Positions 20,832 to 39,186 of a stretch of 64,000 nucleotides of DNA are shown piece after piece. The notes under the pieces are model-generated. The model did no database searches. It saw nothing but the letters and a program-made list of their open reading frames with translations, and was not told the DNA's origin. Position numbers and translations under genes: made by a program. This DNA comes from Candidatus Omnitrophota bacterium (GTDB lineage Bacteria > Omnitrophota > Gorgyraeia > Gorgyraeales > Gorgyraeaceae): positions 92,245-156,244 of the forward strand of contig JBHPFI010000002.1 of NCBI GenBank assembly GCA_042572045.1, read 5' to 3'. How positions within the stretch are numbered: the first letter of the stretch is position 1; each line of letters starts with the position of its first letter.

Positions 20832-20901
20832 ATTATACCTCAAACAAAAATCCCTTGCAACCTATTTTGTTAAAAGGGATTAGAAGTATTGGCTCCCCGG
20901 G
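20832..20901 (-). repeat. island boundary 1 (outermost): hairpin/promoter + tRNA-Asn 3'-end core
   Basis: Core TGGCTCCCCGGG at 20890-20901 is 12/12 identical to 39111-39122. Hairpin TCCCTT/AAGGGA. Minus-strand TTGCAA (20855-20860) -N17- TATAAT (20832-20837). No conserved arm. Confidence 0.75.
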
Positions 20902-20982
20902 TTGAACGATGTTTATAACGCTAAAATTATATCGTCAGTTATTGTAAATACAAAATTAATAATATTGTAAAGCCATGCGCGA

Positions 20983-22014
20983 CTACTTACTCCTTACCCT
21001 CTTAATCATAAAGTCTACGGCCCTGGAGCAATTTGTAGGCTCTATTGCCACCCCGGGATTACTTAACAGAAACACCCTAAATATTTCATCTGCAAACCCC
21101 TGGCCTATTGTTTTAACTTGATTAAAATCCAAAATTACTACTTTAAATTTGTTTAGTCCCGTAATGAGCCTCCTGGCCTGAGACCTTGAAGTATATTCTA
21201 CGTTCTTATGATAAAGTTTAACGATTACTTTTGTTTTGTTAAATTTGTAGTCACTGTCGGTGTACTGTGCGAAAATCGTACTTATATCTTTTCTGGTATT
21301 TTTATTTACTTGAAAGTATACTTTTGTACCCTTACGATACTTTATTTCATTTGTATAAATATCCTTTACCTTGTTATCGATAATCAGTCCTATCTTTGCA
21401 CTTTCAATCTTGAAGACATCTGCAGTTTTTGAAGTAAAAAATATACCTTCTCCTGTATGCTTTGACGGCATTGTAGTTCTTTTGCCTTTTAAAATTTCGG
21501 TTAGCGCATCATACTCATCGGCTAGCTTAAACTTTTTCTGTATATGCTTAAAAATACCTATGCCCTTATCAGTAACGTTAAAACTCGCCGTGTCGCTAGT
21601 TAAAGTTAGTAAAATATCTATATATTCGGAACTGGAATGCTCGATTGCGTTATTAAGCATTTCCGTAAAAGCGTATCTTATAATATCCTGAGTATTCTTT
21701 TGTAATTTTTTTAAAGACGGCATTCTATAGATAACCCTATTATAGACAAAATCCTCTTGTATTTTTTTGTTCCTCAGCCTTACCTTGTATACCTTGTCCT
21801 CTTTTTTTAATTTTCTTGCCTCTTCTTTTGAAAACAAAATATAATATGAGCCTCTTGTCTTGCCGATCTTGAGAAGATTTCGCGATTTAACTAATTCACG
21901 TAAATGTTGATGGGCCGCCTGGCGTGAGATATTACAAATTTTGGCAATGGCGTCGCTGTTTATGCTACCCTTGCTCCTAATTTGTTTCAATATTAAATCT
22001 TTTATGTTTCGCAT
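20983..22014 (-). CDS. HTH + histidine-kinase-like ATPase + STAS-like (DUF4325-type) protein
   Basis: 343 aa. N-terminal wHTH (ISRQAAHQHLRELV), an ATPase N-box-like EMLNNAIEH, and a C-terminal DUF4325-like segment. Confidence 0.6.
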   Translation of the reverse strand: MRNIKDLILKQIRSKGSINSDAIAKICNISRQAAHQHLRELVKSRNLLKIGKTRGSYYILFSKEEARKLKKEDKVYKVRLRNKKIQEDFVYNRVIYRMPSLKKLQKNTQDIIRYAFTEMLNNAIEHSSSEYIDILLTLTSDTASFNVTDKGIGIFKHIQKKFKLADEYDALTEILKGKRTTMPSKHTGEGIFFTSKTADVFKIESAKIGLIIDNKVKDIYTNEIKYRKGTKVYFQVNKNTRKDISTIFAQYTDSDYKFNKTKVIVKLYHKNVEYTSRSQARRLITGLNKFKVVILDFNQVKTIGQGFADEIFRVFLLSNPGVAIEPTNCSRAVDFMIKRVRSK

Positions 22015-22086
22015 ATTTTGAGTATACCATAATTGTAAAGTATTGTAAAGTATTTATTAGTTTTATTGTAAAGTAAGTAAAAACAA

Positions 22087-22131
22087 AAAATCCCAAGTGA
22101 AAACTTGGGATTTTGTCCAATATGGCTCCCC
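22087..22131 (-). repeat. island boundary 2: hairpin + core
   Basis: Hairpin AAATCCCAAGT-GAAA-ACTTGGGATTT at 22087-22112 with a T-run on the minus strand. Core TGGCTCCCCG at 22122-22131 (10/10). No conserved arm. Confidence 0.7.
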
Positions 22132-22377
22132 GATACATTCACTCATCAAACTACTTTTACGTATATATTTAGGTTCAAGGTTAATAGATATTGCTCGTAA
22201 TATTCTTTTTTATTGAACAACATATACGTCACATAGACTTACGCAACGCGTCTGGGGATTATGGGCATTATTCGAAACAGAGATAGATTTTTGATAACCT
22301 TCGAGTTATAATACGAACTATGGTTGCTCTTACATGATTCACGTCCCTATGATCAGAAATAATAATGCGAGGAAATA

Positions 22378-23376
22378 ATGGGATCGCAAAACGATATTCT
22401 GGTTAGTGTCGTAATTCCCTGTTACAATAGGCGGGATGATCTGCGCAGATGTCTCCAGGGACTTATTCTTCAGAAGCAAAACACATCGCACATTCCTGCA
22501 TTTGAGGTTATCGTTGTTGACAATGGCTCAGAAGATGGTACAGCCGATATGCTTCATACCGAATTTTCCTCTGTGCGTCTACTCCGAAATTCAGTAAATT
22601 TGGGTGCTTCTAAGGCAAGAAACCAGGCCTTAAAAATTATTTTGAATAAATATGTTTGGTTTCTTGACTCTGATTCGGTAGTTGAGAATTTAGATTCTCT
22701 TGTGTGGATGGTCAAAATAATGGAAGAAAATTACGACATCGGAAGTATTGGCGGTGAACTTATCAAAGATACTCAGGGCAAAGTAATTCTGAAAAGTAAG
22801 CGGATTCTCTTGAATGGCGAGACTGGAGCAAAGTCAATCGAACCTCATAAAGCTAAGCTCGTTAATTGTGACTATCTTGCGACTTGCAATTGTTTTACGC
22901 GACGAGAACTCCTCCTCAAAATCGGAGGATTTGACCCGGATTACTTCGTCTTTAGCGAGGATAAAGAGCTCGGGTTAAAAATCAAAAAACTTGGCTATCG
23001 TAATGTTTGTGATTACCGAACAGCCGTATTTCACAATATCACTTTTTCACAGCGAAGAAGTATTTTTTTGAAGTATCGTAACGTCATTAGGTTTGCGCTA
23101 AAAAATTTATCTATCTGCCAGATATTAATAATGCCTTTTTCAACCGTTCTTATAAAAATAAAGGTTGGAGAAGATGTTTATCGACAACTTAAGAAAGACG
23201 AACCAGCGGTTCTCAAGTATGTACCTAAGCATCTGTCTTTTTTTGGTAAGCTCTTTTTCTTAGGTGGTATGTATATTCTGGCATTACTTTGGGCTTATAT
23301 GTGGAACCTTTGGCATTTGTTTCCTACCTTGAAGGCGAGATTCAAAAGGAGGAATTATATAGAATATGATCCATAA
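22378..23376 (+). CDS. family-2 glycosyltransferase
   Basis: 332 aa. VVIPCYN...DNGSEDGT...DSD motifs. Confidence 0.8.
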   Translation: MGSQNDILVSVVIPCYNRRDDLRRCLQGLILQKQNTSHIPAFEVIVVDNGSEDGTADMLHTEFSSVRLLRNSVNLGASKARNQALKIILNKYVWFLDSDSVVENLDSLVWMVKIMEENYDIGSIGGELIKDTQGKVILKSKRILLNGETGAKSIEPHKAKLVNCDYLATCNCFTRRELLLKIGGFDPDYFVFSEDKELGLKIKKLGYRNVCDYRTAVFHNITFSQRRSIFLKYRNVIRFALKNLSICQILIMPFSTVLIKIKVGEDVYRQLKKDEPAVLKYVPKHLSFFGKLFFLGGMYILALLWAYMWNLWHLFPTLKARFKRRNYIEYDP

Positions 23377-24529
23377 ATTCTTTGGTATAAAAACCGAGCA
23401 ACGTCAAGGACTCTATAAAGCATTTTGTGCGCTTCCGAAAATTATTAAGAACCCTTTAATTAATATAGCTTGCTGGATAGGTAGGCATCAAATCAAATCT
23501 TTCTCTACGCCCCCCAGGCTTATCTGGTACGTTACCTCCCGTTGCAATGCTCGGTGTAGCCATTGTTTTTATGGCCGTCATATTAATCAGAAAGACGAAT
23601 TTACTATTGATGAATTTAAGAGGGTGGTTCGGAGCCTCGATACGAAACTTAGAGCGGTTAATCTTACGGGCGGAGAACCCTTTCTCCACGGAGATCTCCC
23701 TGAGCTTTGTCGTACTCTCGCTGAAATAAGTAAAACAGATTTAATTACACTCCCAACAAATGGGAGTAAGCCAGCCTCTATAGAGCTATCTCTCCAAAAA
23801 ATCCTCAAAACCGCTAAACTTAGGGTAAATGTTCAGGTTTCGCTGGAGGGGACGCGTGATGTTCACGATCAAATTTGCGGTATTTATGGCATTTTTGATA
23901 ATGCTGTCGAAACCGTACAGCGATTAAAAAAATTAAAATCCCACTACAAGAGACTCAACAATATATCAGTCATCACTACGCTCTCTTTGCAAAACGAGAA
24001 GTGCTTGTCAGAGTTAATGCGATTTGTCAGAGAAGAGCTTGGTGTTTTTCACAAGATTCAATTTATCCGTGGAGCTCATACAGATGTCTTTGGGATTGAG
24101 TTATGTGACTTGAGTGAACTCGATCCTTTACATCCAGAGAAACCGCACGATATTGTCGGTGTAGTAAATTTTTTAAGTAGAGATATTCTTCGATATAATA
24201 AAACTCTCCTAGCGCGTAAACAGATTGAACTTCTTTATCAAGCTGCCTCGATATTAACCAACAAGAAGCCAAGCGTAAATTGTCTTGCTGGACGTATTGA
24301 TGGTGTGATTTTTGCTAATGGTGACGTTGCTATCTGTGAGTTGACCAAACCTTTTGCTAATCTACGGGATTTCAGTTTTGACTTTCATAAACTATGGAAT
24401 AGCTCTCAAGCAAATGAGATGCGACGCAGAACCCAAAAATGTTTTTGTACGCATCCCTGCAATCTCACAACTTCAATGAGTTTTGATCCCCATATACTTA
24501 AAAAGCTTTCCGTTGAATATATACTGTAG
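23366..24529 (+). CDS. radical SAM protein with SPASM-like C-terminal Cys cluster
   Basis: 387 aa. CNARCSHC (CxxxCxxC) plus a C-terminal C..C....C...C cluster. Confidence 0.75.
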   Translation: MIHKFFGIKTEQRQGLYKAFCALPKIIKNPLINIACWIGRHQIKSFSTPPRLIWYVTSRCNARCSHCFYGRHINQKDEFTIDEFKRVVRSLDTKLRAVNLTGGEPFLHGDLPELCRTLAEISKTDLITLPTNGSKPASIELSLQKILKTAKLRVNVQVSLEGTRDVHDQICGIYGIFDNAVETVQRLKKLKSHYKRLNNISVITTLSLQNEKCLSELMRFVREELGVFHKIQFIRGAHTDVFGIELCDLSELDPLHPEKPHDIVGVVNFLSRDILRYNKTLLARKQIELLYQAASILTNKKPSVNCLAGRIDGVIFANGDVAICELTKPFANLRDFSFDFHKLWNSSQANEMRRRTQKCFCTHPCNLTTSMSFDPHILKKLSVEYIL

Positions 24530-24530
24530 C

Positions 24531-25976
24531 CTAGGTTTTGTATTTAGCACGGAACAAATATTTTAAAAGGTACTTGCCCATGCGGAGTAAGTTAGTGCAG
24601 TAACTCCTGCTCAAAACCATCATTCTAAGAAAACGCAAAAATATTTTTGGCCTCAAATGAAATTGCCAGAATGCCGATTTTGCCATTTTGTTCGGATCAA
24701 AATCTTCAAACAATAATATACCGCTATTATATTCCGGGAACAGATATCTCTCATTAATGGTATTCGGAACACAATTAGCAAAATACCAGTCTTTTTTAAT
24801 AAGATTATTCCTGACAGCATAGTCATACAGGTGCGTACCAGGATATGCTATGGCGGGGAAAAACCTCACGAAAAACGAGTTGAGCTTTTTTGCAAAATCC
24901 ACTGAATCCCTGATGCTCTGCGGTGTTTCATTTAGGTTTCCGATCATAAAAGTCGCATGCGTTTTAATTTTTGCTTTCCTGGCTAATTTGAATATCTTTA
25001 CAGCAAAATCTTTGTTGATCTCTTTGTTAATTGTGTTAAGCATATCTTCATTCCCGGATTCTATGCCGAAATTAATTAAATCAAACCCGCATTTTTTCAT
25101 ATTGGCCAATAAAGTCTTATCCACGCAGTCAACTCTCGTATTGCACCTGAAATTGACTTTTAATCCAGATTCCAATACTTTTTCACAGAACCGGTTTGCC
25201 CATTCCTTGTCTTTTGTGAACAAGCTGTCTTTAATAACAAAATACTTTATGCCGTATTTATGATAATTATATTTCAATTCTTCCATAATATTTTCTATAC
25301 TTCTGTTCCTCCATTTATGTCCGTGTATAATGTAAGCCGAACAGAAATTACAATTATAAGGGCAGCCCCTGCTTGTTATTATTGAAGCGGTTTGGGCAAG
25401 AGAATAAGGTACGTTATATAACTTAGGTCTGTAATTAATAATATGACTGAGTTCAGGAAACGGCAAAAGGTCCAAATCAACAATAAACTTTTGCGGTTTA
25501 TTCATAATTATATCTTTATTTGACCGATAAATAAGATTCGGGACTTCCATCAGCGGCATATTATTATTTAATTTTTGTATCAAATTAAGTAATGCCTCTT
25601 CTCCTTCCCCATAAATCAGATAATCAATATTCCTGTCATACTCCAGCATTTCTTCTTTAGTGCCGGATATATGCGGCCCTCCTAAAACAACAGGTATATC
25701 ATTAAATTCATCTTTCAATTTAGCGGAAAGCTGAATAACTGTATTCAAAAAGACCGTCATGACATTAAATCCAATCAGGTCTATGTTTTTTTCGATGATG
25801 ATATTCCGCAAATCCTGGTAGGAAAACCGCTGGATTTCTCCATCAAAGACATACGTTTTAACCTCATGCTGATTCAGGTAGGCTGATATATACAGGAGCC
25901 CCAAAGGGGGTAATCCGAACAACGCTTTACTGTTCAGACGTGCCGGAGGGCATATTAATAGAACATTTTTGATCAT
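24531..25976 (-). CDS. B12-binding-domain radical SAM protein
   Basis: 481 aa. N-terminal cobalamin-binding-type Rossmann fold and CPYNCNFC. Confidence 0.8.
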   Translation of the reverse strand: MIKNVLLICPPARLNSKALFGLPPLGLLYISAYLNQHEVKTYVFDGEIQRFSYQDLRNIIIEKNIDLIGFNVMTVFLNTVIQLSAKLKDEFNDIPVVLGGPHISGTKEEMLEYDRNIDYLIYGEGEEALLNLIQKLNNNMPLMEVPNLIYRSNKDIIMNKPQKFIVDLDLLPFPELSHIINYRPKLYNVPYSLAQTASIITSRGCPYNCNFCSAYIIHGHKWRNRSIENIMEELKYNYHKYGIKYFVIKDSLFTKDKEWANRFCEKVLESGLKVNFRCNTRVDCVDKTLLANMKKCGFDLINFGIESGNEDMLNTINKEINKDFAVKIFKLARKAKIKTHATFMIGNLNETPQSIRDSVDFAKKLNSFFVRFFPAIAYPGTHLYDYAVRNNLIKKDWYFANCVPNTINERYLFPEYNSGILLFEDFDPNKMAKSAFWQFHLRPKIFLRFLRMMVLSRSYCTNLLRMGKYLLKYLFRAKYKT

Positions 25977-26047
25977 TTTTTATGTGAAACCCGCATAGCT
26001 CAGTTCTGTGAATTAAATGTCTTATCCAATCCTTATTAGCATTATCT

Positions 26048-26743
26048 TTATAATATATTAGCAACAATATAGGACCAGATAAAATAAATCCCAACAATTA
26101 CAAATATAATACCAGTAATTTTTCTCGTATATAATTCGAGCGCCGTTGCTTTACGGAACCATTTTGAGAAAGAGGTTACACCCATAGCAATCCCCAATGC
26201 GAATATAACCACAGGAATGCCTGTGCCTATACCATAAAAGAAAGGTAGGATAATCCCATAAGTGCTTTTTAATGCAAGAGGAATTAGGCTGCCGAAAAAT
26301 AACGCGGCAGCGATGGGACAGAAAGATAGGGCAAAAATTACTCCAAGCATAAAAGAACCCTTTGTCCCTGATTCGGCTAATGCAGTCTGTTTATCTTGAG
26401 AAATTGAAAAGCTCGGAATGTTAATCTTTATTAAATCTAACAGAAACAATCCAACTATTAGTAAGACAGGGCCTAAAATCTTGTTCATATATTTCTGCAA
26501 AAAATTGGCTGTTGCGGGAACACTTGCTAATGAAGTTATGATAACAACTCCTAATACAGCATACGTAAGCATGCGCCCAACGGTATAAACAATGCTTGAT
26601 TGCAACACGAGCTTGGGATTGTTTATTTTTTTTGATAAGAACGATACAGCTGCTATATTTGTAGCAAGAGGACACGGGCTTATGGAAGTAAGAATACCGA
26701 ACCATAATGCAGAAACAAATGGTAGTATAATCTGAATCATCAC
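26048..26743 (-). CDS. CcdA/DsbD-family transmembrane thiol-disulfide transporter-like protein (family also contains ArsG-type permeases)
   Basis: 231 aa and 6 TM. An SPCP motif lies in TM1. Confidence 0.65.
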   Translation of the reverse strand: MMIQIILPFVSALWFGILTSISPCPLATNIAAVSFLSKKINNPKLVLQSSIVYTVGRMLTYAVLGVVIITSLASVPATANFLQKYMNKILGPVLLIVGLFLLDLIKINIPSFSISQDKQTALAESGTKGSFMLGVIFALSFCPIAAALFFGSLIPLALKSTYGIILPFFYGIGTGIPVVIFALGIAMGVTSFSKWFRKATALELYTRKITGIIFVIVGIYFIWSYIVANIL

Positions 26744-27159
26744 TGGTTATCCTTTAAGTAATTATTGATTTCGGTTGTGACGTAGTTGAAAAATTTCTTT
26801 TTATCTCTTACATATTCCCATATCTTCGTAAGATTGTCATGCTGTATCTCTTTACCATTTTCGACACGTGAAATTATAAGAGCTTTCGTATACAGTTGAT
26901 AATCATTTACGAAGTGCTCGTTTTCCTTTTCTTCAACGTTTACTGTTTTAACAACAAGCAAACCATTAGTCAATTCATCTTTAAAGTTCTCCTCGATCGC
27001 CTCCTTTGTATACTGCTCCATCTTATGGCAAGTCGAACAACGGGCATTACCGTGAAAATAGTAAGCAATTATCTTAACATCAGCACCAAGCACCATCGTT
27101 GTGCTTATTACTAACAGTGCCATTAAAATGATTGGTGTTAAGAAACGCTTTATAACCAT
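26740..27159 (-). CDS. membrane-anchored thioredoxin-like CxxC protein (ArsF-like family suspected)
   Basis: 139 aa. Signal anchor and YYFHGNARCSTCHKME. Confidence 0.5.
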   Translation of the reverse strand: MVIKRFLTPIILMALLVISTTMVLGADVKIIAYYFHGNARCSTCHKMEQYTKEAIEENFKDELTNGLLVVKTVNVEEKENEHFVNDYQLYTKALIISRVENGKEIQHDNLTKIWEYVRDKKKFFNYVTTEINNYLKDNQ

Positions 27160-27377
27160 TTTTTAATCTCCTCTGCTGATAAAATTTTTCCTGATGACTT
27201 GACTTCACCGTCTATAACAAGAACTGGCATCATCATAACGCCACATTTTGTAATCTTGTCCATATCCTCAACTTTAATAATCTCAGCTTGAATGCCTTTT
27301 TCCTCAACCGCTTTCTTTGCGTTTTCATAAAGCATTTTACATTGAGGACATCCTATTCCGAGAATTTCAATTTTCAT
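27150..27377 (-). CDS. small thioredoxin-fold redox-active disulfide protein
   Basis: 75 aa. GCPQC active site; resembles TM0504-like proteins. Confidence 0.75.
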   Translation of the reverse strand: MKIEILGIGCPQCKMLYENAKKAVEEKGIQAEIIKVEDMDKITKCGVMMMPVLVIDGEVKSSGKILSAEEIKKWL

Positions 27378-27421
27378 GTTTTCTCTTTTAGTTATTCTAT
27401 CGACACCTCAGGTCAATAACC

Positions 27422-28378
27422 TTACATTATCGATTGAAGTATATTGAACAAATATCCTGTAATGATGATAGCTACGGTTGTTACTCCAAAAAAGATTGCT
27501 ATTAGCTGTAGTTTCATTGCCCTTCTTAAGATTACCGCTTCAGGAAAACTCAAGGCAGCTGTTGCCATCATAAAAGCTAATGCTGTTCCCAATGGAACAC
27601 CTTTTCTGAACAAAACCACCGCTATTGGCACAATTGCTGCACAGCTTCCATACATCGGCACTCCAAGTATAGTTGCAAGAGGAACCGAAAAAATACCTGT
27701 TTTACTTATTATTCCGTGTATTGTTTCTTGAGGGATGTAGTTATGAATAAATGAACCTATACCCACACCCAACAATACCCACATCCATAGTTTCTTTGTA
27801 ATTGACTTGGCCTCATCTATTCCAAAGATAATTCTTTCTCTTATTCCTGTATAAACTTTTTCTTTGGCTTGTTGCATATCTTCTGAGACCAAGCCTTTAA
27901 CAAGGTATCTCTCCAAATGCATCTTGCCCAGAATAGCGCCTGAGATAACGCCTATCGTAATTCCGCTTAATACATAAAGAAGGGTAATTTTCCACCCGAA
28001 AAATCCAAGCATTACTATTACAAGATACTCGTTAATTAAAGGAGACGTTATTAAGAATGAGAATGTGGCTCCTAGCGGAATGCCAACTTCCAAGAAACTC
28101 AAGAAAATAGGTATAGAAGAGCATGAACAAAATGGAGTTACTGAACCAAAAAGCGAAGCAAAAAGATTACCCAATACCTTCTTCTTGCTAATCCAATCCT
28201 TAATCTTATTCTGAGATATATAAGTTCTAACAAAACCAATAGCTGCTATCATAAAAAATAGCAGCAACAGTATTTTAATAGAGTCATATAAAAAGAAATT
28301 GATTACTCCGCCCAGTCTTGAATCTGGATTTAATCCAAAAACAGAATAAACCAACCAGTCTATTATCAGCTGCAACAT
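27422..28378 (-). CDS. ArsP-type (PF03773-like) permease
   Basis: 318 aa, about 8 TM, with a TPFCSCSS vicinal-Cys motif. Confidence 0.7.
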   Translation of the reverse strand: MLQLIIDWLVYSVFGLNPDSRLGGVINFFLYDSIKILLLLFFMIAAIGFVRTYISQNKIKDWISKKKVLGNLFASLFGSVTPFCSCSSIPIFLSFLEVGIPLGATFSFLITSPLINEYLVIVMLGFFGWKITLLYVLSGITIGVISGAILGKMHLERYLVKGLVSEDMQQAKEKVYTGIRERIIFGIDEAKSITKKLWMWVLLGVGIGSFIHNYIPQETIHGIISKTGIFSVPLATILGVPMYGSCAAIVPIAVVLFRKGVPLGTALAFMMATAALSFPEAVILRRAMKLQLIAIFFGVTTVAIIITGYLFNILQSIM

Positions 28379-28503
28379 GACTTGCCTTTGCTTTTATCCT
28401 TGCTGTCACAACAAGGTTTTGCTTTTGCCTTTTCTTCCATTTTCTTGTCTAACTTTTCAAACAACTTACCAAAAAAACTTTTCTTCTTTTCTGGCCTATT
28501 CAT
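28366..28503 (-). CDS. 45-aa Lys-rich peptide with two CC pairs (absent from ORF track)
   Basis: Translation is MNRPEKKKSFFGKLFEKLDKKMEEKAKAKPCCDSKDKSKGKSCCS*. ATGA overlap with the DUF134 stop; its own stop overlaps the permease start. Confidence 0.45.
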   Translation of the reverse strand: MNRPEKKKSFFGKLFEKLDKKMEEKAKAKPCCDSKDKSKGKSCCS

Positions 28504-28802
28504 TTCTTCCTCCTTGTAATTCTGCAGCATCCACCTTCGATTTTAATCGCTTTTATATTTACTAATGCGTCGCCTATCTTGCTATGAGCGGAAGTAATGA
28601 TTCTTGAGAAAGTGGGCCGAGAGATTTTTAGTTTCTTTGCCGCTTCTTCTTGCTTTAATCCTTCATAATCAGATAATCTTACTGCCTCAAACTCATCTAA
28701 AGTCATGCATATGCCATCTAATTGATTGGATGGTTTACATTGCGGCCTGAAACATCTTTCTCCGGGTTCGCATTTAACCCATCGTGTCTTTTTCGGTCTC
28801 AT
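28500..28802 (-). CDS. DUF134 (UPF0251) putative DNA-binding regulator
   Basis: 100 aa. RPKKTRWV...F.P and a sigma-70-region-4-like HTH (QEEAAKKLKISRPTFSRI). Confidence 0.75.
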   Translation of the reverse strand: MRPKKTRWVKCEPGERCFRPQCKPSNQLDGICMTLDEFEAVRLSDYEGLKQEEAAKKLKISRPTFSRIITSAHSKIGDALVNIKAIKIEGGCCRITRRKK

Positions 28803-31428: not shown

Positions 31429-31932
31429 TTAGAGAAAATATTCTTCTATTGCTGTATTATAATCTACATTTTCTCCATTTGAGCCGTAACTGTTCTCTGT
31501 AAATAAATATGCTAGATACTCAACCTGTTCTCTTGACTGCATATTAACAATTTCTTGTTTGCTGGAATAAAACTTTGTAAATATGCCCAAGCAAAGTACT
31601 AATACCATCGCAGTCGCAACGGCAAAGATAGGTTTTGGGATATAGATAAAATTCCTTAGCTTATCCATTAAATTATGCGTGGGGTATGGTCTTGTTTCTT
31701 GCTGGGTTTCAGCTTCTATTTTCTCTTTTATGCGATACCAGATTGAATCAAGCGGCTCTTTTGTCTCTATTTTTCTAAATGGTCCTATAACGGATTTTGT
31801 AACCATAGACGCGAATTCTCTACAAGCTCTGCATTGTGCCAAATGTTCTTCTATGAGCTCTTTCTGAGTTGCTTTTATCTCTTTATCTGAATAATCTGTA
31901 AGAATCATATTTTTAACTTTTTTACACTTCAT
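31429..31932 (-). CDS. anti-sigma factor (zf-HC2 type), single TM
   Basis: 167 aa. H...C..C motif (HLAQCRAC). Overlaps the sigma gene. Confidence 0.7.
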   Translation of the reverse strand: MKCKKVKNMILTDYSDKEIKATQKELIEEHLAQCRACREFASMVTKSVIGPFRKIETKEPLDSIWYRIKEKIEAETQQETRPYPTHNLMDKLRNFIYIPKPIFAVATAMVLVLCLGIFTKFYSSKQEIVNMQSREQVEYLAYLFTENSYGSNGENVDYNTAIEEYFL

Positions 31933-32467
31933 TTTTTACCACCTCTCTTCTTAGAACTATTAGTTTTTGCCTGGCTCTCTTAAGTCTTGAACGCACTGTA
32001 TTAATATTAATCCTTAATACGCTGGATATCTCTTTATAGCTAAGTCCCTGGATTTCCTTCAATACTATACAGGTCTTGTGCTCTAGGCTAAGCTTACCCA
32101 GAAGATATCTAACTAAGTTCTCATTATCATGATCTTTTCCCTTATGGTCAGGACTAGTATTTAGTGCAAACTCATAATGTACTCTTTTATTTTCTTCCTT
32201 TGAGATTTTCTTTTTGAAATTTATGGCTGTATTCACAGCAATCCTGTAAAGCCATGTCTTCAAGGACGAACGAAAATTAAAGCTTCTTAGGTTCTTAAAT
32301 ACTTTAATAAATACCTCTTGGGTTATTTCTTCAGCATCTTTGCTATTATTGGCAACTCTAAATGCTACATTATATACAAAGCTCGAGCTCGACTTATAGA
32401 TTTCCTCAAATGCTCTCATATCTCCTTGAGACGCCTTTATTATTAAATCATTGTCTATTTCGACCAT
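31922..32467 (-). CDS. ECF (group 4) sigma-70 factor
   Basis: 181 aa. Region 2 (DAEEITQEVFIKVF) and region 4 HTH (LSYKEISSVLRININTVRSRL). Confidence 0.85.
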   Translation of the reverse strand: MVEIDNDLIIKASQGDMRAFEEIYKSSSSFVYNVAFRVANNSKDAEEITQEVFIKVFKNLRSFNFRSSLKTWLYRIAVNTAINFKKKISKEENKRVHYEFALNTSPDHKGKDHDNENLVRYLLGKLSLEHKTCIVLKEIQGLSYKEISSVLRININTVRSRLKRARQKLIVLRREVVKNEV

Positions 32468-32618
32468 CTCCTGCCCCTAATAATATTAGACAAAGAAAAC
32501 TCTCTAAAAGTTCCTTTATATTATAACATAACCAAAGACAAAGATAACCTGTTAGAGCATAACAGACTATCTCTGCCTTACTTTATTGAAAATGTTAGAT
32601 TAAAAATCTAAATTTGTT

Positions 32619-33233
32619 CTACTTACCATACATAACTTTGAGCTGTTCTACAGATGGAAATTCATAGTAAAATTCACCTTGCGGTCCAACAAACCCATCT
32701 CCTAATTTGTTCAATGTTACCGCTGTATAACTACCATTCGCATTAGGGATATTTACTGTATAACTATCTTCTGAATCTTTAGAATTAGATTCTATAACCT
32801 TTACTTCCTTTGGAAGCTCGACAATTTCATAAACTGGGTCGGGGATGACAATATATCTTCCTTTTTTTCTAACATAATAAATATCGTTGTAATAATAATA
32901 GGCATTACCTTTAATAACTATAGTTTTGTGGCCTTTTGGTAAAGCAGTAACTATAGCTCCTCTTGGTGCATCAACAATTATATACCCCGAAGGAGTCCTT
33001 TTGTAAAAATATCCATGATGATAATAATACTCTACTCCTGCATGAATAATTACTTTCGCTATTAGCTCAGGTAAGCTTACTATTTTTCCACGATAAGGAT
33101 GATGATGGTGACGGTGCTGTCTATGTCTTATGGATTTTTTTTTGCTTGCGAAAGCATCTACAGAATAAACTGATAAAAAACTACACACAACTATACTCAT
33201 AACAACCGTTCTTATAATCTTTTTTGTTACCAT
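32619..33233 (-). CDS. secreted His/Tyr-rich protein, unknown function
   Basis: 204 aa with a signal peptide. HRQHRHHHHP tract and YYY-rich beta repeats. Confidence 0.5.
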   Translation of the reverse strand: MVTKKIIRTVVMSIVVCSFLSVYSVDAFASKKKSIRHRQHRHHHHPYRGKIVSLPELIAKVIIHAGVEYYYHHGYFYKRTPSGYIIVDAPRGAIVTALPKGHKTIVIKGNAYYYYNDIYYVRKKGRYIVIPDPVYEIVELPKEVKVIESNSKDSEDSYTVNIPNANGSYTAVTLNKLGDGFVGPQGEFYYEFPSVEQLKVMYGK

Positions 33234-33346: not shown

Positions 33347-33466
33347 AAACCGTTGTAACTTATTCAATTACAACGGTTTAGAAACAGTGGCTCCCCCCAA
33401 GACTACGAGTTTCGCAACTTTTTGGAGGAGTTTAGGGATTATTGCTTATCGCACGAAGCAAGAAAA
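33347..33466 (-). repeat. island boundary 5: hairpin + core + arm
   Basis: Hairpin AAACCGTTGTAA/TTACAACGGTTT. Core TGGCTCCCC at 33388-33396, followed by extra Cs that break the frame. Arm reads DYEFRNFLEEFRDYCLSHEARKL. Confidence 0.75.
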
Positions 33467-33832
33467 TTAGTGACAGCTATGGTTAATACATGCATTATCC
33501 ACGGTAATTTCTTCTAATTTACCTTCTTTGTATTTTTTGATTATTTCTTCTACTGTTCCGGCATTTGCTCTATAAGCTTTAATACCACCTTCATTAAGCT
33601 TTTGAACTGCCCTAGCTCCCATCCCACCGCATACTACTGCATCAATCCCCTTATTATCTAATGCTTTTAGTGGGTGGCACATTCCGTGCATATGTTGACT
33701 ATCGCCATTGTTAATAACTTCAAATGCTCCTTTTTCATTATCATAGATTAAAAAATAAGGAGCGCTCCCAAAATGAGCATTAACTTCTGACTTCAAGCCT
33801 TCATTTTCTACTATCGGAATACATATTTTCAT
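33467..33832 (-). CDS. NifB/NifX-type (dinitrogenase FeMo-cofactor-binding fold) small protein
   Basis: Start at MKICIPI (ATG 33832, sharing 1 nt with the upstream stop codon). HFG.A..F and GIDAVVCGGMG motifs. Confidence 0.7.
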   Translation of the reverse strand: MKICIPIVENEGLKSEVNAHFGSAPYFLIYDNEKGAFEVINNGDSQHMHGMCHPLKALDNKGIDAVVCGGMGARAVQKLNEGGIKAYRANAGTVEEIIKKYKEGKLEEITVDNACINHSCH

Positions 33833-34305
33833 CAAACTGCCCTCCCACATCTACCTCTACCACGACCTCCGCCCCCACCTGTCCTCGCCCAACCTCTATC
33901 TTGTGGCGCTCTATGAATATTTGAGCTGCTACACTTGGGGCACACATTTGGTCTGCCAGCTCCATATGGCGAAGTCCATTCATTTTTACAATCATAACAA
34001 ACAAAATATCTCTCCATCATTTTAACCACACCCCCTTCTATTTTTAATGCTTTACTATTAACTAATGCATCTGCTATTTTTCTATGTGCAGAGGAAATAA
34101 TATTTCCGAATGTTTGCCTTGAAACATTCATCTTTTTAGCAGCATCTTCTTGATACTTTTCTTCCAAATCAGCAAGTCTTATTGCCTCAAGTTCATCCAT
34201 AGTTAAATCAACTTCATCTAATGAATCAACAGGAATACCTCTGGGCTTAAAATAATTTGCATTAGGATTACAACGAACTCTCCTACATCTAAAAGGTCTT
34301 GGCAT
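33832..34305 (-). CDS. DUF134 regulator fused to C-terminal zinc-ribbon and RGG tail
   Basis: 157 aa. The first 95 aa are paralogous to 28500..28802. They are followed by CYDC...CPKC and GGGGGRGRGRCGR. Confidence 0.75.
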   Translation of the reverse strand: MPRPFRCRRVRCNPNANYFKPRGIPVDSLDEVDLTMDELEAIRLADLEEKYQEDAAKKMNVSRQTFGNIISSAHRKIADALVNSKALKIEGGVVKMMERYFVCYDCKNEWTSPYGAGRPNVCPKCSSSNIHRAPQDRGWARTGGGGGRGRGRCGRAV

Positions 34306-34340: not shown

Positions 34341-34387
34341 TAGTATATCATATCTATAATTTTCGTCAAGATTATTATGTAAAAATA

Positions 34388-34430
34388 AATTGGCGCCAGA
34401 TAAAAAAATATCTGGCGCCAATTTTGGCTC
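34388..34430 (-). repeat. island boundary 6 (weak): hairpin + 6-nt core
   Basis: Hairpin AATTGGCGCCAGAT/ATCTGGCGCCAATT. Only TGGCTC (34425-34430) matches the tRNA end, and there is no arm. Confidence 0.45.
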
Positions 34431-34980: not shown

Positions 34981-34993
34981 AATTTGCCAAAAG

Positions 34994-35127
34994 AAAAGCC
35001 TCTGCTTATTATAACATAAGAGAGGCTTTTCCTACTGCAAATTTGGCTCCCCGCATTAGATGAGTTTCGCAACTGGTTATATGCTGAAGAAGCTAATAAA
35101 TTATATAAAGAACCGTTGTTAACCTAA
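34994..35127 (-). repeat. island boundary 7: hairpin + core + short-variant arm
   Basis: Hairpin AAAAGCCTCT/AGAGGCTTTT. Core TGGCTCCCCG at 35044-35053. Arm reads WLPALDEFRNWLYAEEANKLYKEPLLT*. Confidence 0.75.
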
Positions 35128-35193: not shown

Positions 35194-35727
35194 TTAGGTT
35201 GGTGTTGCGGTACCACCTAAAATAGAAAACAATAACATAAAGATTAACGCCTGAATAACCCAACCAATCGCGCAAACTCCCACAGCTCTTAACGTGTTCT
35301 TATAATCGAGTGCTTGTCTAACCGCAATGACCATTGCCGTTAGCATCCAAATTGAGGCCCCTAGAAAAACAATCCCTGTCAGTCCTGGGATAATGCCCAA
35401 TACCCGAATCAAACCCGGCGAGGTCGAAAAACCAATGGTTCGCAGCATCTCTCCCATATCTGCCTTGGTCTGAGATTCCGGAAGAAGTCTTGTACCGATA
35501 AAGTAAGTAAGAAAAGCCCATACATACCAGCTGATAAGAGCGACAATTGTCCCCATGAGGATTCCACCAAGGCCTCCTTTTGCAATGGTTCCTATTCCGG
35601 CGGCTATACTAGAGAGAATAACTACCCCCGTGGCCTGTCTCATCGCCGTAGTGTCAGCTTCAACCTCTTCATACAGCTTAACATCTAGTTTAGCAGCACG
35701 AATAATACGATCGTTAAAATCAGCCAT
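35194..35727 (-). CDS. Yip1-family integral membrane protein
   Basis: 177 aa and 5 TM, with an N-terminal cytosolic helix. Confidence 0.65.
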   Translation of the reverse strand: MADFNDRIIRAAKLDVKLYEEVEADTTAMRQATGVVILSSIAAGIGTIAKGGLGGILMGTIVALISWYVWAFLTYFIGTRLLPESQTKADMGEMLRTIGFSTSPGLIRVLGIIPGLTGIVFLGASIWMLTAMVIAVRQALDYKNTLRAVGVCAIGWVIQALIFMLLFSILGGTATPT

Positions 35728-35867
35728 TTCAATCTCCTTTCAAGTTTTGTTTAGATTAGTCCTCGTGCTCCGGACTCAGGAATCTTTATCTTGGAAGTTC
35801 TTGTACCGTTTTGAAACTTAGCTATCAATGTGTCTTATGGCAATCTTCAAACTGTCCCTTTTTTCTA

Positions 35868-35975
35868 CTAGTGTGTTTTTTCTTGTTTTTTCCTGTTTGC
35901 TTCGTTTTTTGCGTTTTTTGCTTTGTTTACTTGTTTGTTGTGTTTATTCTTATCTTTCCTACCTTTATCGCCCAT
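35868..35975 (-). CDS. 35-aa highly basic peptide (absent from ORF track; tentative)
   Basis: AAGGAGGAA RBS. Translation is MGDKGRKDKNKHNKQVNKAKNAKNEANRKKQEKTH*. The sequence is low complexity. Confidence 0.3.
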   Translation of the reverse strand: MGDKGRKDKNKHNKQVNKAKNAKNEANRKKQEKTH

Positions 35976-35994
35976 GGATATTCCTCCTTTTTTT

Positions 35995-36097
35995 CCTCCC
36001 CGTATTGGACGAGTTTCGCAACTGGTTAGAGGAGTTTAAGGATTATTGTCTTTCAGAAGAAGTCAGCAAGTTATGCAAAGAACTTGTTATCGCCTAA
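35995..36097 (-). repeat. island boundary 8: degenerate core + best-preserved arm
   Basis: TTCCTCCCCG matches the core at 8/10. Arm reads LPVLDEFRNWLEEFKDYCLSEEVSKLCKELVIA*, which is the end of ORF-track 35828..36097. No hairpin. Confidence 0.65.
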
Positions 36098-36104
36098 TCA
36101 CTTA

Positions 36105-36485
36105 TTACTTCGCATTAGGGTCAGCTTGCACTATACCAAACATAAGTCCACCCGGCTCTGCACATGTTGCATACCAACCGATAGTGGGTATAGCCATCTT
36201 TGGTTCAATGATATTGCCGCCATTCGCTTTTACCTTTTCAATAAACTCATCAAGGCTTTGAACCGGTATTGTTACTTGAGTTAAGGGCTTACCACCTGTG
36301 ATAGGAGTATCTTTGACTTCGCCAATACCTCCATCAATACCAATCTCTTTATCGCTTCCTGCGCTAATTCGGTAGTATTCATATGGCATAGGAAACTTTT
36401 CAAAACTCCAGCCAAAGACATTTTCAAAAAACTTTCTGGCATCTTTAAGATTGTTGACTGTGAAATCAAAATATGTTGGTCTCAT
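36105..36485 (-). CDS. VOC (glyoxalase/bleomycin-resistance fold) family protein
   Basis: 126 aa of paired beta-alpha-beta-beta-beta modules. Confidence 0.7.
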   Translation of the reverse strand: MRPTYFDFTVNNLKDARKFFENVFGWSFEKFPMPYEYYRISAGSDKEIGIDGGIGEVKDTPITGGKPLTQVTIPVQSLDEFIEKVKANGGNIIEPKMAIPTIGWYATCAEPGGLMFGIVQADPNAK

Positions 36486-36499
36486 CTTTTACCCTTTCT

Positions 36500-36742
36500 T
36501 TACCCAACAATGCGTAATGCAAAATATGGAATAACATTGAAAAAAAACACGGCTATCTTGTAGAACATCGCACCAGCATAGTGAATCTCATCAAACCTCT
36601 CAACTGATAACTTAAGAAACTTGCTATGGAACTTGTAGACAAAATCATGTAATACCGTAATAGCAAAAAACCACCAGAGAAGTATTCCTATATTGATTAT
36701 TGAACACCAGCCTAACACTGCACGCATCGTCTCAATTGTCAT
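36500..36742 (-). CDS. small 2-TM membrane protein
   Basis: Start at MTIETM (AAGGAGG RBS). The ORF track allows a start at 36760. Confidence 0.5.
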   Translation of the reverse strand: MTIETMRAVLGWCSIINIGILLWWFFAITVLHDFVYKFHSKFLKLSVERFDEIHYAGAMFYKIAVFFFNVIPYFALRIVG

Positions 36743-36762
36743 TTTGTCCTCCTTTTTCAATC

Positions 36763-36925
36763 ATTCTACTCCAAATAAAAACCCCTTGCAACTTATTTTA
36801 TTGCAAGGGGTTATAAGTAGTGGCTCCCCTCGGACTACGAGTTTCGCAACTTTTTGGATGAGTTCAAAAACTATTGTATCACTGAATAAGCAAGCAAGCT
36901 ATATGAAGAACTCGTGATTGCTTAA
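36763..36925 (-). repeat. island boundary 9: promoter/hairpin + core + arm
   Basis: 36772-36829 is 58/58 identical to 39062-39119 (hairpin AACCCCTTGCAA/TTGCAAGGGGTT plus TGGCTCCCC). Arm reads WLPSDYEFRNFLDEFKNYCITE*ASKLYEELVIA*, with an in-frame TAA at 36887-36889. Confidence 0.85.
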
Positions 36926-36960: not shown

Positions 36961-37815
36961 TCATTTTGTCGCGACATTGAAAAATTCTACACCATGTTTA
37001 TCTAATTCGCCCACTAGTTCTCGCGAGTTTTCCCATCCTGTTTCTTTTAGAAAACCACCAAGTTTCTCAGGTTGTATGCTCCAGAGCCAAGGTTCTCCGG
37101 TAACCTTGAGAATCCACATGGTCAACCCTGTCCAACGGCCAGCATCAGGTCGACCATCTGTTCTGGTAGCGACATACGTAAAGGCAATTCGGCTGCCAGC
37201 ACCAGAGATTACAGCGCACTGGTTAAACAAGCCCCGGACTGCCTCAGGGGGCAGATACATCAGCAGCCCCTCAGCCACAATTACGGTCTGCATTTTCGAG
37301 TTCCATGAGTCATTAGCTTCTAGAACGTCCACCAGTTTGTGCTTACCCAAGTCCTCGCCGATTACATGAAGGTTATTCTGAGGTCCCATCGCCTCTATGC
37401 CTTTTGCTTTTAGACTGGCTGTAGCCGGGTGGTCTATTTCAAAAAAATGCACTTTAGGAAAATCCGGAGCTAATCGCCACCCCAGCGTATCATAACCAGC
37501 TCCCAAAACAAGAACCTGAGTAACGCCCCCAGCAATCCCTATCCTTACCTGGCGCTCACAAAATGCTTTTCTGTGAGCAAAAGCTTCAAACTGTCCCGGC
37601 ATCATCCAATCGAATGCCTTGTAAATTGAGACTGCTCTTCGCGAGCGGGAAAATTGAACTGCAGTTTTACTAACTGCACCAGAGGTAAGAAGAAGTTTTG
37701 CCGTAGTTTCAACAATCCCAGGGGGAAGAACTTTGTCCATCCCTGGCTTTGCCCCCAAAGTAACAATGTTCAGGGCAACCTTGCGCGCGGTATAGCTCGG
37801 TGCATCTTTACGCAT
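36961..37815 (-). CDS. class I SAM-dependent methyltransferase (LCMT/O-MT-like)
   Basis: 284 aa. VLVLGAGYDTLGWR SAM motif. Confidence 0.7.
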   Translation of the reverse strand: MRKDAPSYTARKVALNIVTLGAKPGMDKVLPPGIVETTAKLLLTSGAVSKTAVQFSRSRRAVSIYKAFDWMMPGQFEAFAHRKAFCERQVRIGIAGGVTQVLVLGAGYDTLGWRLAPDFPKVHFFEIDHPATASLKAKGIEAMGPQNNLHVIGEDLGKHKLVDVLEANDSWNSKMQTVIVAEGLLMYLPPEAVRGLFNQCAVISGAGSRIAFTYVATRTDGRPDAGRWTGLTMWILKVTGEPWLWSIQPEKLGGFLKETGWENSRELVGELDKHGVEFFNVATK

Positions 37816-37841
37816 AACATACTCCTATGATTAGAACTATA

Positions 37842-38177
37842 TTATTTCGACTTAACTAAAAATAAAATACCAATAACGACTAGTGGCAAACTAATTATTG
37901 AAAATTGAACAAGCCCTTGGTAGGTATGAAAGAAAAACATGGAAACTATTGCCAAAGCTAGAAATAATATCCCACCTACTTTTGGCTTTTTCCATGCAAT
38001 AAATACAGCTACCCAAACTAAAAGCCAAGGAGCAATATTTGGCAGATTCAATAATACTCTTTTAATTCCATTTGCATTTTCTGCACCTGAAAGCATGGCA
38101 AAAACAGTAAATAGTCCCGCATAAAGTAAGACCAATATTTTTGAGATAGTCGTAGTCATAGAAAAAACTCCGGACAA
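37842..38177 (-). CDS. small 4-TM membrane protein
   Basis: 111 aa, hydrophobic throughout. Confidence 0.5.
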   Translation of the reverse strand: MSGVFSMTTTISKILVLLYAGLFTVFAMLSGAENANGIKRVLLNLPNIAPWLLVWVAVFIAWKKPKVGGILFLALAIVSMFFFHTYQGLVQFSIISLPLVVIGILFLVKSK

Positions 38178-38235: not shown

Positions 38236-38382
38236 AAAAATGCCTGACTTTTTAATCAGGCATTTTTATCGTAACTTCATTATATTTAATTAGTTACGAA
38301 ATATTGGCTCCCCGTATTGGACGAGTTTCGCAACTGGTTATATTCAAAAGAAACTAATAAATTCTCTCTGTCTCTTAAGTAA
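38236..38382 (-). repeat. island boundary 10: hairpin + core + short-variant arm
   Basis: Hairpin AAAAATGCCTGA/TCAGGCATTTTT. Core TGGCTCCCCG at 38305-38314. Arm reads WLPVLDEFRNWLYSKETNKFSLSLK*. Confidence 0.8.
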
Positions 38383-38388
38383 TGGCTT

Positions 38389-39030
38389 CTATATCCATTT
38401 AATGATAGGTTCTTTTTTGTTTGGTCGTATAATATCCAATGCACTGGAATCGCTTTTTGGATAACCAAGCACGACAGGTCCGAAGATTCGTTCATCATCT
38501 CTTAGTTCAAGGACTTGTTTGATATCAGCATCACCTGTCACCATCGCTCCAAAACCAACATAACAACTTCCCAAGCCAAAAGACGTTGCAGCAATCATAA
38601 TATTTTCACATGCAAGTGCACAACTTACATCAGACCCATTTGGACCTACGACAAAGATAATAACAGGTGCAAAATAATAAATCATGTCTTTGGGCTCATT
38701 CATCGCCTCATAAAGCCTCATTGCTTGCTCATACATTTCAGGCATAGTCTTTTTCATTCCTTCAACAAACTTTGACCTAATCGGTTCAGTGGTCTGAACG
38801 AGTTTTTTCTTAAACTCTGGGTCTTCTACAACAACAAACCGCCAGGGCTGAACAATATCTTCAGGCTTCTCATGCTTCTCCGACATAAAAGGCGCTTGAT
38901 TACCAGCCTTTATTATCGTTTTTATTATATCTTTTGGAATTGGTTTTGCCTCATAAGACCTGATAGAACGCCTGTTGTTTATGGCTTCAATTATTGAGCT
39001 TGTCATTGCTTTATTTTTTTCTGATAACAT
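38389..39030 (-). CDS. nitroreductase-family protein
   Basis: 213 aa. RRSIRSY FMN-binding N-terminus. Confidence 0.8.
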   Translation of the reverse strand: MLSEKNKAMTSSIIEAINNRRSIRSYEAKPIPKDIIKTIIKAGNQAPFMSEKHEKPEDIVQPWRFVVVEDPEFKKKLVQTTEPIRSKFVEGMKKTMPEMYEQAMRLYEAMNEPKDMIYYFAPVIIFVVGPNGSDVSCALACENIMIAATSFGLGSCYVGFGAMVTGDADIKQVLELRDDERIFGPVVLGYPKSDSSALDIIRPNKKEPIIKWI

Positions 39031-39052
39031 AAAACGTTACCTCCTTTGCAAT

Positions 39053-39102
39053 ATTTTACAACAAATAAAAACCCCTTGCAACTTATTTTATTGCAAGGGG
39101 TT
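39053..39102 (-). promoter_or_regulatory. tRNA-Asn terminator hairpin that also carries the -35 of the next promoter
   Basis: Minus strand reads AACCCCTTGCAA-TAAAATAAG-TTGCAAGGGGTT-TTTATTTGTTG-TAAAAT. That is TTGCAA (39076-39081) -N17- TAAAAT (39053-39058). Confidence 0.6.
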
Positions 39103-39110
39103 ATAAGTAG

Positions 39111-39186
39111 TGGCTCCCCGGGCAGGACTCGAACCTGCGACTTACTGGTTAACAGCCAGTCGCTCTACCAACTGAGCTACCGGGGA
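39111..39186 (-). tRNA. tRNA-Asn(GUU): tRNA-Asn (anticodon GUU), CCA encoded
   Basis: TCCCCGGTAGCTCAGTTGGTAGAGCGACTGGCTGTTAACCAGTAAGTCGCAGGTTCGAGTCCTGCCCGGGGAGCCA. Acceptor TCCCCGG/CCGGGGA, anticodon loop CTGTTAA, T-arm GCAGG-TTCGAGT-CCTGC. Confidence 0.9.

Follow-up and report, generated by a model that had tools for sequence, protein, structure and literature searches.

What places the 3' end of a single tRNA gene, over and over and always in the same orientation, between small accessory genes? The question is raised by a 64-kb stretch of a Candidatus Omnitrophota contig (JBHPFI010000002.1; the whole 64,000 nucleotides analysed are here called the window), in which short cargo-bearing segments fill some 18.8 kb between a tRNA-Asn(GTT) gene and a zinc-finger/BipA flank. 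The answer we favour, and to which we give as a whole a probability of roughly 0.7, is that this region consists of some ten small mobile units in tandem, assembled by site-specific recombination at the tRNA 3' end through the attachment (att) sites of a large serine recombinase (LSR). The BipA of the outer flank is 89-95% identical to BipA of Omnitrophota metagenome-assembled genomes (MAGs).

The recurrence of the tRNA end is not fortuitous. ARAGORN and Rfam both recognize the tRNA-Asn that a first-pass annotation of the window had placed beside the array, and the excess of co-oriented cores claimed there is borne out by shuffling and by profile searches. The 12-mer TGGCTCCCCGGG, with up to two mismatches, has seven matches (1.55 expected), and the 15-mer GACGAGTTTCGCAAC, with up to three, also has seven (0.93 expected); in both cases all lie on the plus strand, and none of 100 shuffles reached seven. 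An nhmmer profile of the repeat, which is about 100 nt long, returned seven significant copies, again all co-oriented, at 28942, 30466, 33388, 35044, 35993, 36821 and 38305 (the first-pass positions, save that it had 30467 and 35995), with E-values from 1e-14 to 8e-6. Besides these there are decayed or core-only copies at 20890 (weak, E=0.09), at 22123 (core only, previously put at 22122) and near 20320. The last, a hairpin at 20280-20310 with TGGC at 20320, had been overlooked, whereas the copy formerly proposed at 34425 is only TGGCTC beside a terminator, and is not counted because a 6-mer match is expected by chance. The region thus comprises an intact tRNA at one end, seven full sites and three remnants in a single orientation. 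By the nhmmer scores, site degeneration grows with distance from the tRNA; this gradient, together with a hairpin behind the tRNA identical to the one at 36780-36812, is consistent with insertion at the tRNA end.

The cores of 9-12 nt are the tips of a much longer repeat, the site spanning about 100-150 bp in all. On the plus strand, copies begin with the tRNA-Asn 3' end in reverse complement (TGGCTCCCC), with a hairpin and T-run on the other side. Read on the minus strand, the repeat runs ...GCTTCTT...AAACTCCTCC-AAAAA-GTTGCGAAACTCGT-N7/8-GGGGAGCCA and is followed by the hairpin with its T-run, usually by a sigma-70-like promoter, and then by the ribosome-binding site of the next gene. Of the terminator-like hairpins on the minus strand of this region, the strongest (39102-39070, 36812-36780, 34424-34387, 33379-33347, 30458-30422, 28905-28874 and 22114-22087) adjoin cores, in agreement with the first-pass annotation, which had also found none at 35995. 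In that annotation each boundary was a mimic of a tRNA end plus a terminator; both parts are present, but they belong to composite sites of about 130-150 bp whose larger arm is the coding tail of an LSR gene, on the opposite strand.

The coding nature of this arm emerges from translation. From the core onward on the plus strand, the copies give the conserved peptide WLP(V/Q)(L/D)(D/Y)EFRN(W/F)L..EEA.KLYKEL, with a stop after 27-34 codons. Related loci (numbered with the prefix L) were collected by scanning public genome, metagenome and viral collections for the exact pattern GTTGCGAAACTCGTN{7,8}GGGGAGCCA; the tail statistics and the counts of sites, units, loci and recombinase bodies given hereafter are among the matches listed. 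In 172 distinct tails, frame 0 stays open for at least 26 codons in 89% of cases, against 12-14% in the other frames, and, past the first 30 nt, codon positions 1/2/3 have entropies of 0.57/0.45/1.00. Conservation of the tail is of the coding type. In a few loci the tail reads on into an open reading frame (ORF) of 400-500 codons upstream, which in L134 carries Resolvase (PF00239), Recombinase (PF07508) and Zn_ribbon_recom (PF13408) domains. Since the full-length ORFs that bear the tail are LSRs, the boundary repeat is a 3' end cut off from an LSR gene, on the strand opposite the cargo. On the tRNA strand, a unit ends with about 80-100 nt antisense to the last 27-34 codons of the LSR, the 9-nt core GGGGAGCCA and the hairpin with T-run. 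In many cassette sites, moreover, the hairpin arm shows homology to the ~40 nt that precede the core in the LSR gene, and cassette sites consequently resemble attP sites minus the recombinase body. The first 30 nt of the tail, TGGCTCCCCAGACAGGACGAGTTTCGCAAC, resemble TGGCTCCCCGGGCAGGACTCGAACCTGCGAC of the tRNA (acceptor plus T arm), a likeness that would let one protein bind both partners. Cassettes lacking an LSR perhaps retain a tail under coding constraint because it becomes the LSR C-terminus when a cassette inserts beside an LSR body.

The long minus-strand repeat and its terminators had first suggested a structured RNA, namely a tRNA-like element of the 3' untranslated region or a riboswitch with terminator, acting on the stability or expression of neighbouring genes. 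The repeat does sit between a stop codon and a terminator, ends in ..GGGGAGCCA like the tRNA and contains a small GNRA hairpin (AGTT-GCGA-AACT), but Rfam gives no match at the gathering threshold or at E<=1 other than tRNA, variation follows a three-base periodicity with an open frame kept on the opposite strand, the same sequence forms the 3' end of intact recombinase genes, and the copy at 35993 has no terminator. With Rfam empty and the opposite strand coding, we dropped this explanation, which we regard as very improbable.

The recombinases themselves tie the repeat to tRNA genes. More than 1600 homologues of the LSR were found, the closest being proteins of 493 aa that end in ...KCGQNENWLPG. 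The 3' ends of these genes take two forms: the free or array-adjacent form reads ...NWLP..DEFRN... to its stop, while the tRNA-integrated form terminates as ...NWLPG inside an antisense tRNA-Asn. In two long contigs (L146 and L147) the LSR ORF overlaps an opposite-strand tRNA-Asn(GTT) by 15 nt, near rpoD and dnaG, and this arrangement of LSR body, core and tRNA is the integrated form. Most of the 120 best homologues end in peptides corresponding to the reverse complement of a tRNA T-arm and acceptor stem (e.g., W..DSNLRP, WRWRESNSRP), the remainder in tails of the D.FR(T/N) type. Because the C-termini spell tRNA ends, the family as a whole targets tRNA 3' ends with an att site inside its own 3' end; in related loci the recombinase gene overlaps att in this way. 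The LSR is adjoined by just a small HTH_3 gene. Only five or six loci contain an LSR body, and sites outnumber LSR genes about 40:1. In L115, L134, L106 and L055 an LSR with intact tail is followed by cargo and further sites, the order expected if cassettes had entered between LSR body and tRNA. Two loci offer details of their own. Downstream of the intact-tail LSR gene of L115, three consecutive sites (1965-2355) lie 147-148 bp apart and delimit empty cassettes. In L152 (7622-10612), a 203-aa C-terminal LSR remnant lies directly downstream of an IS21-like transposase/IstB pair, and the recombinase body was apparently destroyed by the insertion sequence.

Small, diverse, co-oriented accessory genes separated by repeats of about 100-150 bp, with no integrase nearby, also recall an integron cassette array without integrase (CALIN), bounded by attC sites. 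The analogy extends to a fixed site beside a conserved gene and to the existence of integrase-less arrays among integrons. Here, however, the sites are double-stranded and asymmetric (tail, core, hairpin) instead of folded attC, lack the inverted RYYYAAC...GTTRRRY cores, and are homologous to a serine recombinase gene, with no tie to an IntI tyrosine recombinase; the array is anchored on a tRNA, has no attI/Pc, and its units carry their own terminators and promoter-like sequences. Site anatomy rules out attC/CALIN, whose probability we put near zero: the array is not a member of the integron family.

The architecture is widespread. The pattern matched 25 genome contigs, mostly Omnitrophota MAGs and single-cell genomes (SAGs), with others binned as Planctomycetia, Atribacterota, Clostridia, Aminicenantes etc., and at least 120 metagenome contigs; the scan of IMG/VR gave 0 matches, hence no link with known viral contigs. 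In total there are 225 sites in 146 loci, most of them Omnitrophota and Atribacterota, and mixed orientation occurs in 0 of 50 multi-site loci. Sites are spaced 146 bp to 7.7 kb apart (median 1769 bp), nine units of ~147 bp being empty. Six other loci have such an array beside a tRNA-Asn(GTT), again with the cargo on the tRNA strand and the tails antisense. Gene collecting of this integron-like type is common in uncultivated bacteria. Around these arrays we also observed that the array-side tRNA-Asn(GTT) of L005 (an Omnitrophota single-cell genome; ~4363-4693) holds a group I intron in its anticodon loop (4411-4638, minus strand; Rfam Intron_gpI, 81 bits, E=4e-21), on account of which ARAGORN missed the tRNA. 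Elsewhere, a typA/bipA gene 93-95% identical to that of the window stands between two LSR-tail sites or beside one (L148 300-5109, L149 5761-8405, L062 682-2770), so that either arrays can enclose core genes or such genes occupy old cassettes. The neighbourhoods of BipA homologues with 90-94% amino acid identity, with BipA seen inside arrays, are too divergent for a clean empty-site comparison.

Comparison of relatives reveals polymorphism at the level of single units. The refutation envisaged in the first-pass annotation, the same segment present in relatives as one block, is not what we see: related arrays differ by single cassettes. L067, L120 and L136 have flanks 94-99% identical, and only L120 carries an extra unit of 595 bp with a PNPOx-like gene; in the alignment, the lone L067 site consists of the left arm of L120 site A and the right arm of site B. 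The exchange falls within a 36-bp stretch beginning at the GCTC of the core; site A has one G more, and this marker, the only one inside the stretch, would put it within GCTC. L067 also has the window's POR genes upstream of its tRNA (78-81% identity), yet other cassettes. In L035, the left flank of the window's 20890 type is joined to a tail of the 33388 type with its NifX cassette, and at the position of the 20320 remnant L057 shows an intact tail site. Presence or absence of single units with breakpoints at the repeats is accordingly seen in L120 versus L067/L136, in L035 and in L057. The SAG C06 (loci L008 and L017 joined, from an Omnitrophota single-cell genome) has the NifX/DUF134 and DsbD-operon cassettes in common with the window, in another order; positions 26091-28837 of the window, part of unit 8, are common to it, and the DUF134/NifX-like pair occupies other array positions in SAG C06 and L035. 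Finally, L120 and L005 have an extra MNT-HEPN unit directly at the tRNA, with a 25-bp tRNA repeat.

Could these differences have arisen without any cassette-wise site-specific exchange? In the main rival explanation, complete LSR islands integrated serially at tRNA-Asn and subsequently shed their recombinases through deletion or decay. The array would be a fossil, its cassette differences produced by RecA-type homologous recombination among the scars of 100-150 bp or by replacement following DNA uptake. C-terminal LSR remnants of 93-203 aa are indeed common, one being that cut by the IS21-like insertion in L152, the outer sites of the window are decayed, and the L120/L067 deletion lies inside 36 identical bp. 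On the other hand, units are much smaller than islands (median 1.8 kb, down to the empty ones), sites far outnumber LSR genes, hairpin arms are uniform over many different cargos, the tails of LSR-less units are under coding-type constraint, shared cassettes occur in varying order and with differing neighbours, and the new unit of L120 lies exactly at the tRNA. For these reasons we judge a fossil array reshaped by homologous recombination to be unlikely, although it clearly deserves more weight than the structured RNA or the CALIN.

Several observations nevertheless count against site-specific assembly by an LSR, some of them shared with the fossil scenario. No recombinase or transposase domain was detected by Pfam in any sizeable ORF of the 64-kb window, Phage_integrase included, and tblastn of the window with an LSR query gave no match, as the first-pass annotation had anticipated. 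The units of the window are on this ground non-autonomous. For the tail subtype of the window (VLD/QDY), a profile search of 1.84e9 representatives yielded short spurious ORFs only and no full-length LSR, and a search with a related LSR C-terminal fragment gave only remnants of 93-203 aa. Some shared blocks end away from sites, as does the NifX block of SAG C06 at its upstream limit, and deletions between identical stretches of 36-60 bp could come from homologous recombination. Circular contigs were sought among the fetched loci and none was found. Since the loci were retrieved by an exact 23-base pattern, part of the apparent near-invariance of the tail's first 30 nt is artificial. In canonical LSR biochemistry, DNA is cut with a 2-bp stagger in the middle of att sites of ~40-50 bp and recombination is directional (attP x attB); reactions between attP and hybrid sites of the attR type are unproductive, so repeated insertion at an occupied tRNA requires non-canonical site use.

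Assembly at the tRNA through LSR att sites would, in our proposal, proceed as follows. In autonomous elements the LSR gene runs across its own att site. A circular unit with the order hairpin, core and tail would recombine inside the 9-bp core with the chromosomal hairpin, core and tRNA, the reaction being catalysed by the LSR. The tRNA end would be regenerated, the newcomer's hairpin would become the tRNA terminator, and, following the logic of integrons, the restored end would again be a competent target, older units being displaced outward. Cargo lies on the tRNA strand, usually behind its own promoter-like sequence. The units of the window would either be moved by an LSR encoded elsewhere or be fixed by now. 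The repeated insertion at one tRNA put forward in the first-pass annotation holds for the most part, though not in full, and gains support from the polymorphism at cores, the cognate LSR fused to tRNA-Asn in other genomes and the decay gradient, while the order of insertion and any present-day activity enter our scheme only as suppositions. More tentatively, and with much less confidence than in the reading favoured above, we suggest that such arrays might be a working serine-recombinase counterpart of the integron across uncultivated phyla, with tRNA-Asn in the role of attI, promoter-bearing cassettes of ~0.15-7 kb captured, excised and shuffled in trans by the LSR, and each insertion beside the LSR rewriting its C-terminus.

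The features of the array are collected in table 1. The last 9 nucleotides of the tRNA (GGGGAGCCA, plus-strand coordinates 39111-39119) are the shared core, and thus the recombination site on the tRNA side. The accessory genes named in the first-pass annotation agree with the Pfam assignments.

Table 1. Features of the tRNA-Asn array, listed from the tRNA outward (coordinates are positions in the window).
Feature	Position	Strand	Evidence and remarks
tRNA-Asn(GTT)	39111..39186	-	ARAGORN; Rfam tRNA, 75 bits
Hairpin and T-run directly behind the tRNA; we read it as the left arm carried in by the newest unit	39070..39102	-	Identical to the 36780-36812 hairpin; shared identical block of 58 nt, flanks and 9-nt core included
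Unit 1 cargo: nitroreductase	38389..39030	-	Pfam PF00881
Site: core TGGCTCCCC, LSR tail WLPVLDEFRNWLYSKETNKFSLSLK, stop	38305..38382	+	nhmmer E=1.4e-14
Two hairpins, the second with T-run; left arm of site 38305	38236..38299	-	
Unit 2 cargo: DUF7670 (37842-38177), LCM-type methyltransferase (36961-37815)	36961..38177	-	Pfam
Site: core, tail WLPSDYEFRNFLDEFKNYCITE, stop, ASKLYEELVIA, stop (stop inside the tail)	36821..36924	+	nhmmer E=1.8e-10
Hairpin and T-run; left arm of site 36821	36780..36812	-	
Unit 3 cargo: DUF6868 (36500-36760), VOC/glyoxalase protein (36105-36485)	36105..36760	-	Pfam
Site: degenerate core TTCCTCCCC, intact tail FLPVLDEFRNWLEEFKDYCLSEEVSKLCKELVIA, stop	35993..36097	+	nhmmer E=1.1e-12; no hairpin, ribosome-binding site and ATG come next on the minus strand
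Unit 4 cargo: 35-aa lysine-rich ORF (35868-35975), Yip1-domain protein (35194-35727)	35194..35975	-	Pfam (Yip1)
Site: core, tail WLPALDEFRNWLYAEEANKLYKEPLLT, stop	35044..35127	+	nhmmer E=1.4e-14
Hairpin and T-run; left arm of site 35044	34981..35043	-	
Strong terminator hairpin, then GAGCCA only; not supported as a site	34387..34430	-	
Unit 5 cargo: DUF134 (33832-34305), NifX-like protein (33467-33850)	33467..34305	-	Pfam
Site: core with one extra C, tail ..PQDYEFRNFLEEFRDYCLSHEARKL..; overlaps the end of the NifX-like gene	33388..33490	+	nhmmer E=6e-11
Hairpin and T-run; left arm of site 33388	33347..33379	-	
Unit 6 cargo: DUF6515, ECF sigma factor, zf-HC2 anti-sigma factor, LTXXQ/metal-resistance protein, Gly-zipper protein	30562..33233	-	Pfam
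Degenerate site: TGGCTCCTC, tail ..MDEFRTYLREFK..	30466..30582	+	nhmmer E=8e-6
Hairpin and T-run	30422..30458	-	Then an 11/12 sigma-70-like promoter at 30399-30371
Unit 7 cargo: cupin, SemiSWEET (PQ-loop) protein, 2Fe-2S protein	29043..30170	-	Pfam
Site: TGGCTCCCT, tail WLPQDYEFRNFLEEFKNWCLSKEATKLSLFRLTA, stop	28942..29046	+	nhmmer E=5e-11
Two hairpins, the second with T-run	28874..28935	-	Then a promoter-like site at 28868-28840
Unit 8 cargo, minus-strand part: DUF134, ArsP_1 permease, Thioredoxin_3, 139-aa ORF, DsbD_2, B12-binding radical SAM protein	within 22378..28802	-	Pfam
Unit 8 cargo, plus-strand part: radical SAM-SPASM, GT2	within 22378..28802	+	Pfam
Core-only remnant: TGGCTCCCCG at 22123-22132, terminator hairpin at 22087-22114	22087..22132		No tail homology
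Unit 9 cargo: HTH-HATPase-DUF4325 protein	20983..22014	-	Pfam
Decayed outer site: hairpin 20849-20881, exact TGGCTCCCCGGG at 20890, decayed tail WLPGLNDVYN...	20849..20970		nhmmer E=0.09
Outermost remnant: hairpin of the same family (20280-20310), TGGC at 20320	20280..20323		Intact in the relative L057

Some further observations concern the units and their boundaries. The GT2, radical SAM-SPASM and B12-binding radical SAM genes of unit 8 form a trio (22378-25976) with no recognizable site toward the DsbD operon; since SAG C06 has this operon without the trio, the latter was gained or lost by another route. Within the 3' half of the conserved hairpin (AAGTTGCAAGGGG) lies a -35-like TTGCAA, followed 17 nt downstream by a -10-like box (minus strand, 39053-39081 and 36763-36791), and the att hairpin may in this way be both terminator of the upstream unit and part of the promoter of the next cargo; promoter-like matches overall are not enriched (66 found vs 59.7 expected). 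A second short repeat, TGGCCYTTCGACGCG, occurs on the plus strand at 20320-20334 and 34939-34953, in GC-rich context, co-oriented with the cores and at unit boundaries. It may represent another type of att arm, and is absent from all of the 150-odd fetched loci. Elsewhere in the window, a stand-alone ORF of 85 aa with a GIY-YIG nuclease domain (7720-7977, minus strand) lies between transporter and TonB-dependent receptor genes.

How does this array relate to described systems? We searched the literature for exactly such a system and found no paper, but the earlier statement that no bacterial system of this architecture had been described does not stand, as the Dehalococcoides ssrA islands (McMurdie et al. 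2011; PMC3146451) are a precedent. There, a 540-aa serine recombinase, DsiB, is encoded by a gene that always overlaps attL, and the islands are tandem, bounded by 20-bp ssrA repeats, some units without integration module being proposed as cis-mobilizable (PMC3146451). The authors also suggested that the DsiB gene is perhaps complete only on the circle or beside another island (PMC3146451). An arrangement of tandem LSR islands at the 3' end of a t(m)RNA gene, in which the recombinase gene overlaps att, is therefore already known, and these islands are the nearest described relative of our array. Both have an LSR (the recombinases being compared by description), the 3' end of a tRNA-like gene as target, tandem units, short direct repeats of that end, and a recombinase gene whose 3' end overlaps att, with the stop codon outside the island. 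They differ in the target (tRNA-Asn here, ssrA there), in the hosts (Omnitrophota, Atribacterota and others, not Dehalococcoides), and in the units, which here are mostly 0.15-7 kb with 0-8 genes and with integration genes and recombinase bodies scarce; the six-gene Dsi module (DsiB, DsiA, RecF-like, ParB, Mom, tRNA-like) was not seen here. Furthermore, the tail is conserved and coding-constrained at every boundary of our arrays, whereas DsiB C-termini are reported to be divergent (PMC3146451).

Other systems share single traits with the array. Serial integration at one tRNA that displaces older elements, partial tRNA copies at the borders and degenerate integrase-less remnants are common to tandem elements, cis-mobilizable elements (CIMEs) and tycheposons, and such tandem accretion at tRNAs is well established (PMC7192596; preprint 10.1101/2020.12.28.424599). 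Those elements are larger, mostly use tyrosine integrases, and have plain tRNA fragments as borders, not the tail of a recombinase gene. The composite islands of the staphylococcal cassette chromosome (SCC/SCCmec, psi-SCC) use the LSR CcrAB and the 3' end of rlmH as target. They likewise accrete in tandem at one chromosomal site, each unit bringing a replacement target 3' end, with recombinase-less units alongside; however, the target is a protein gene, the repeat restores the host gene and not the tail of the recombinase, and units are tens of kilobases long (SCC islands are also discussed in PMC3146451). In the SSV-type "suicidal" archaeal integrases, the att site within the recombinase gene matches the 3' part of a tRNA and integration splits the gene (PMC8371274). 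These are tyrosine recombinases, archaeal, and split mid-gene; in the present family the exchange affects the last ~30 codons alone and leaves the catalytic protein intact. Self-gene-disrupting recombinases are exclusively archaeal according to a review on tyrosine recombinases (PMC8371274), and the present LSR family together with DsiB are their bacterial serine counterparts.

The analysis brings to light a very large LSR family aimed at tRNA 3' ends, with att within its own gene. Because the C-terminus of the recombinase spells the target tRNA, att sites can be read from sequence, and the family is a source of integrases with predictable, conserved targets. The conserved, exchangeable tail offers a testable idea for the control of directionality without a separate directionality factor: if insertions do rewrite the C-terminus, this could give a built-in switch between a tailed and a tRNA-truncated form of the LSR. 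If our interpretation is correct, the array would represent a second means of stacking genes in the manner of integrons, unrelated to theirs in mechanism, by way of a serine recombinase and a tRNA gene, and would account for a hotspot of the flexible genome in Omnitrophota, Atribacterota and other barely studied lineages.

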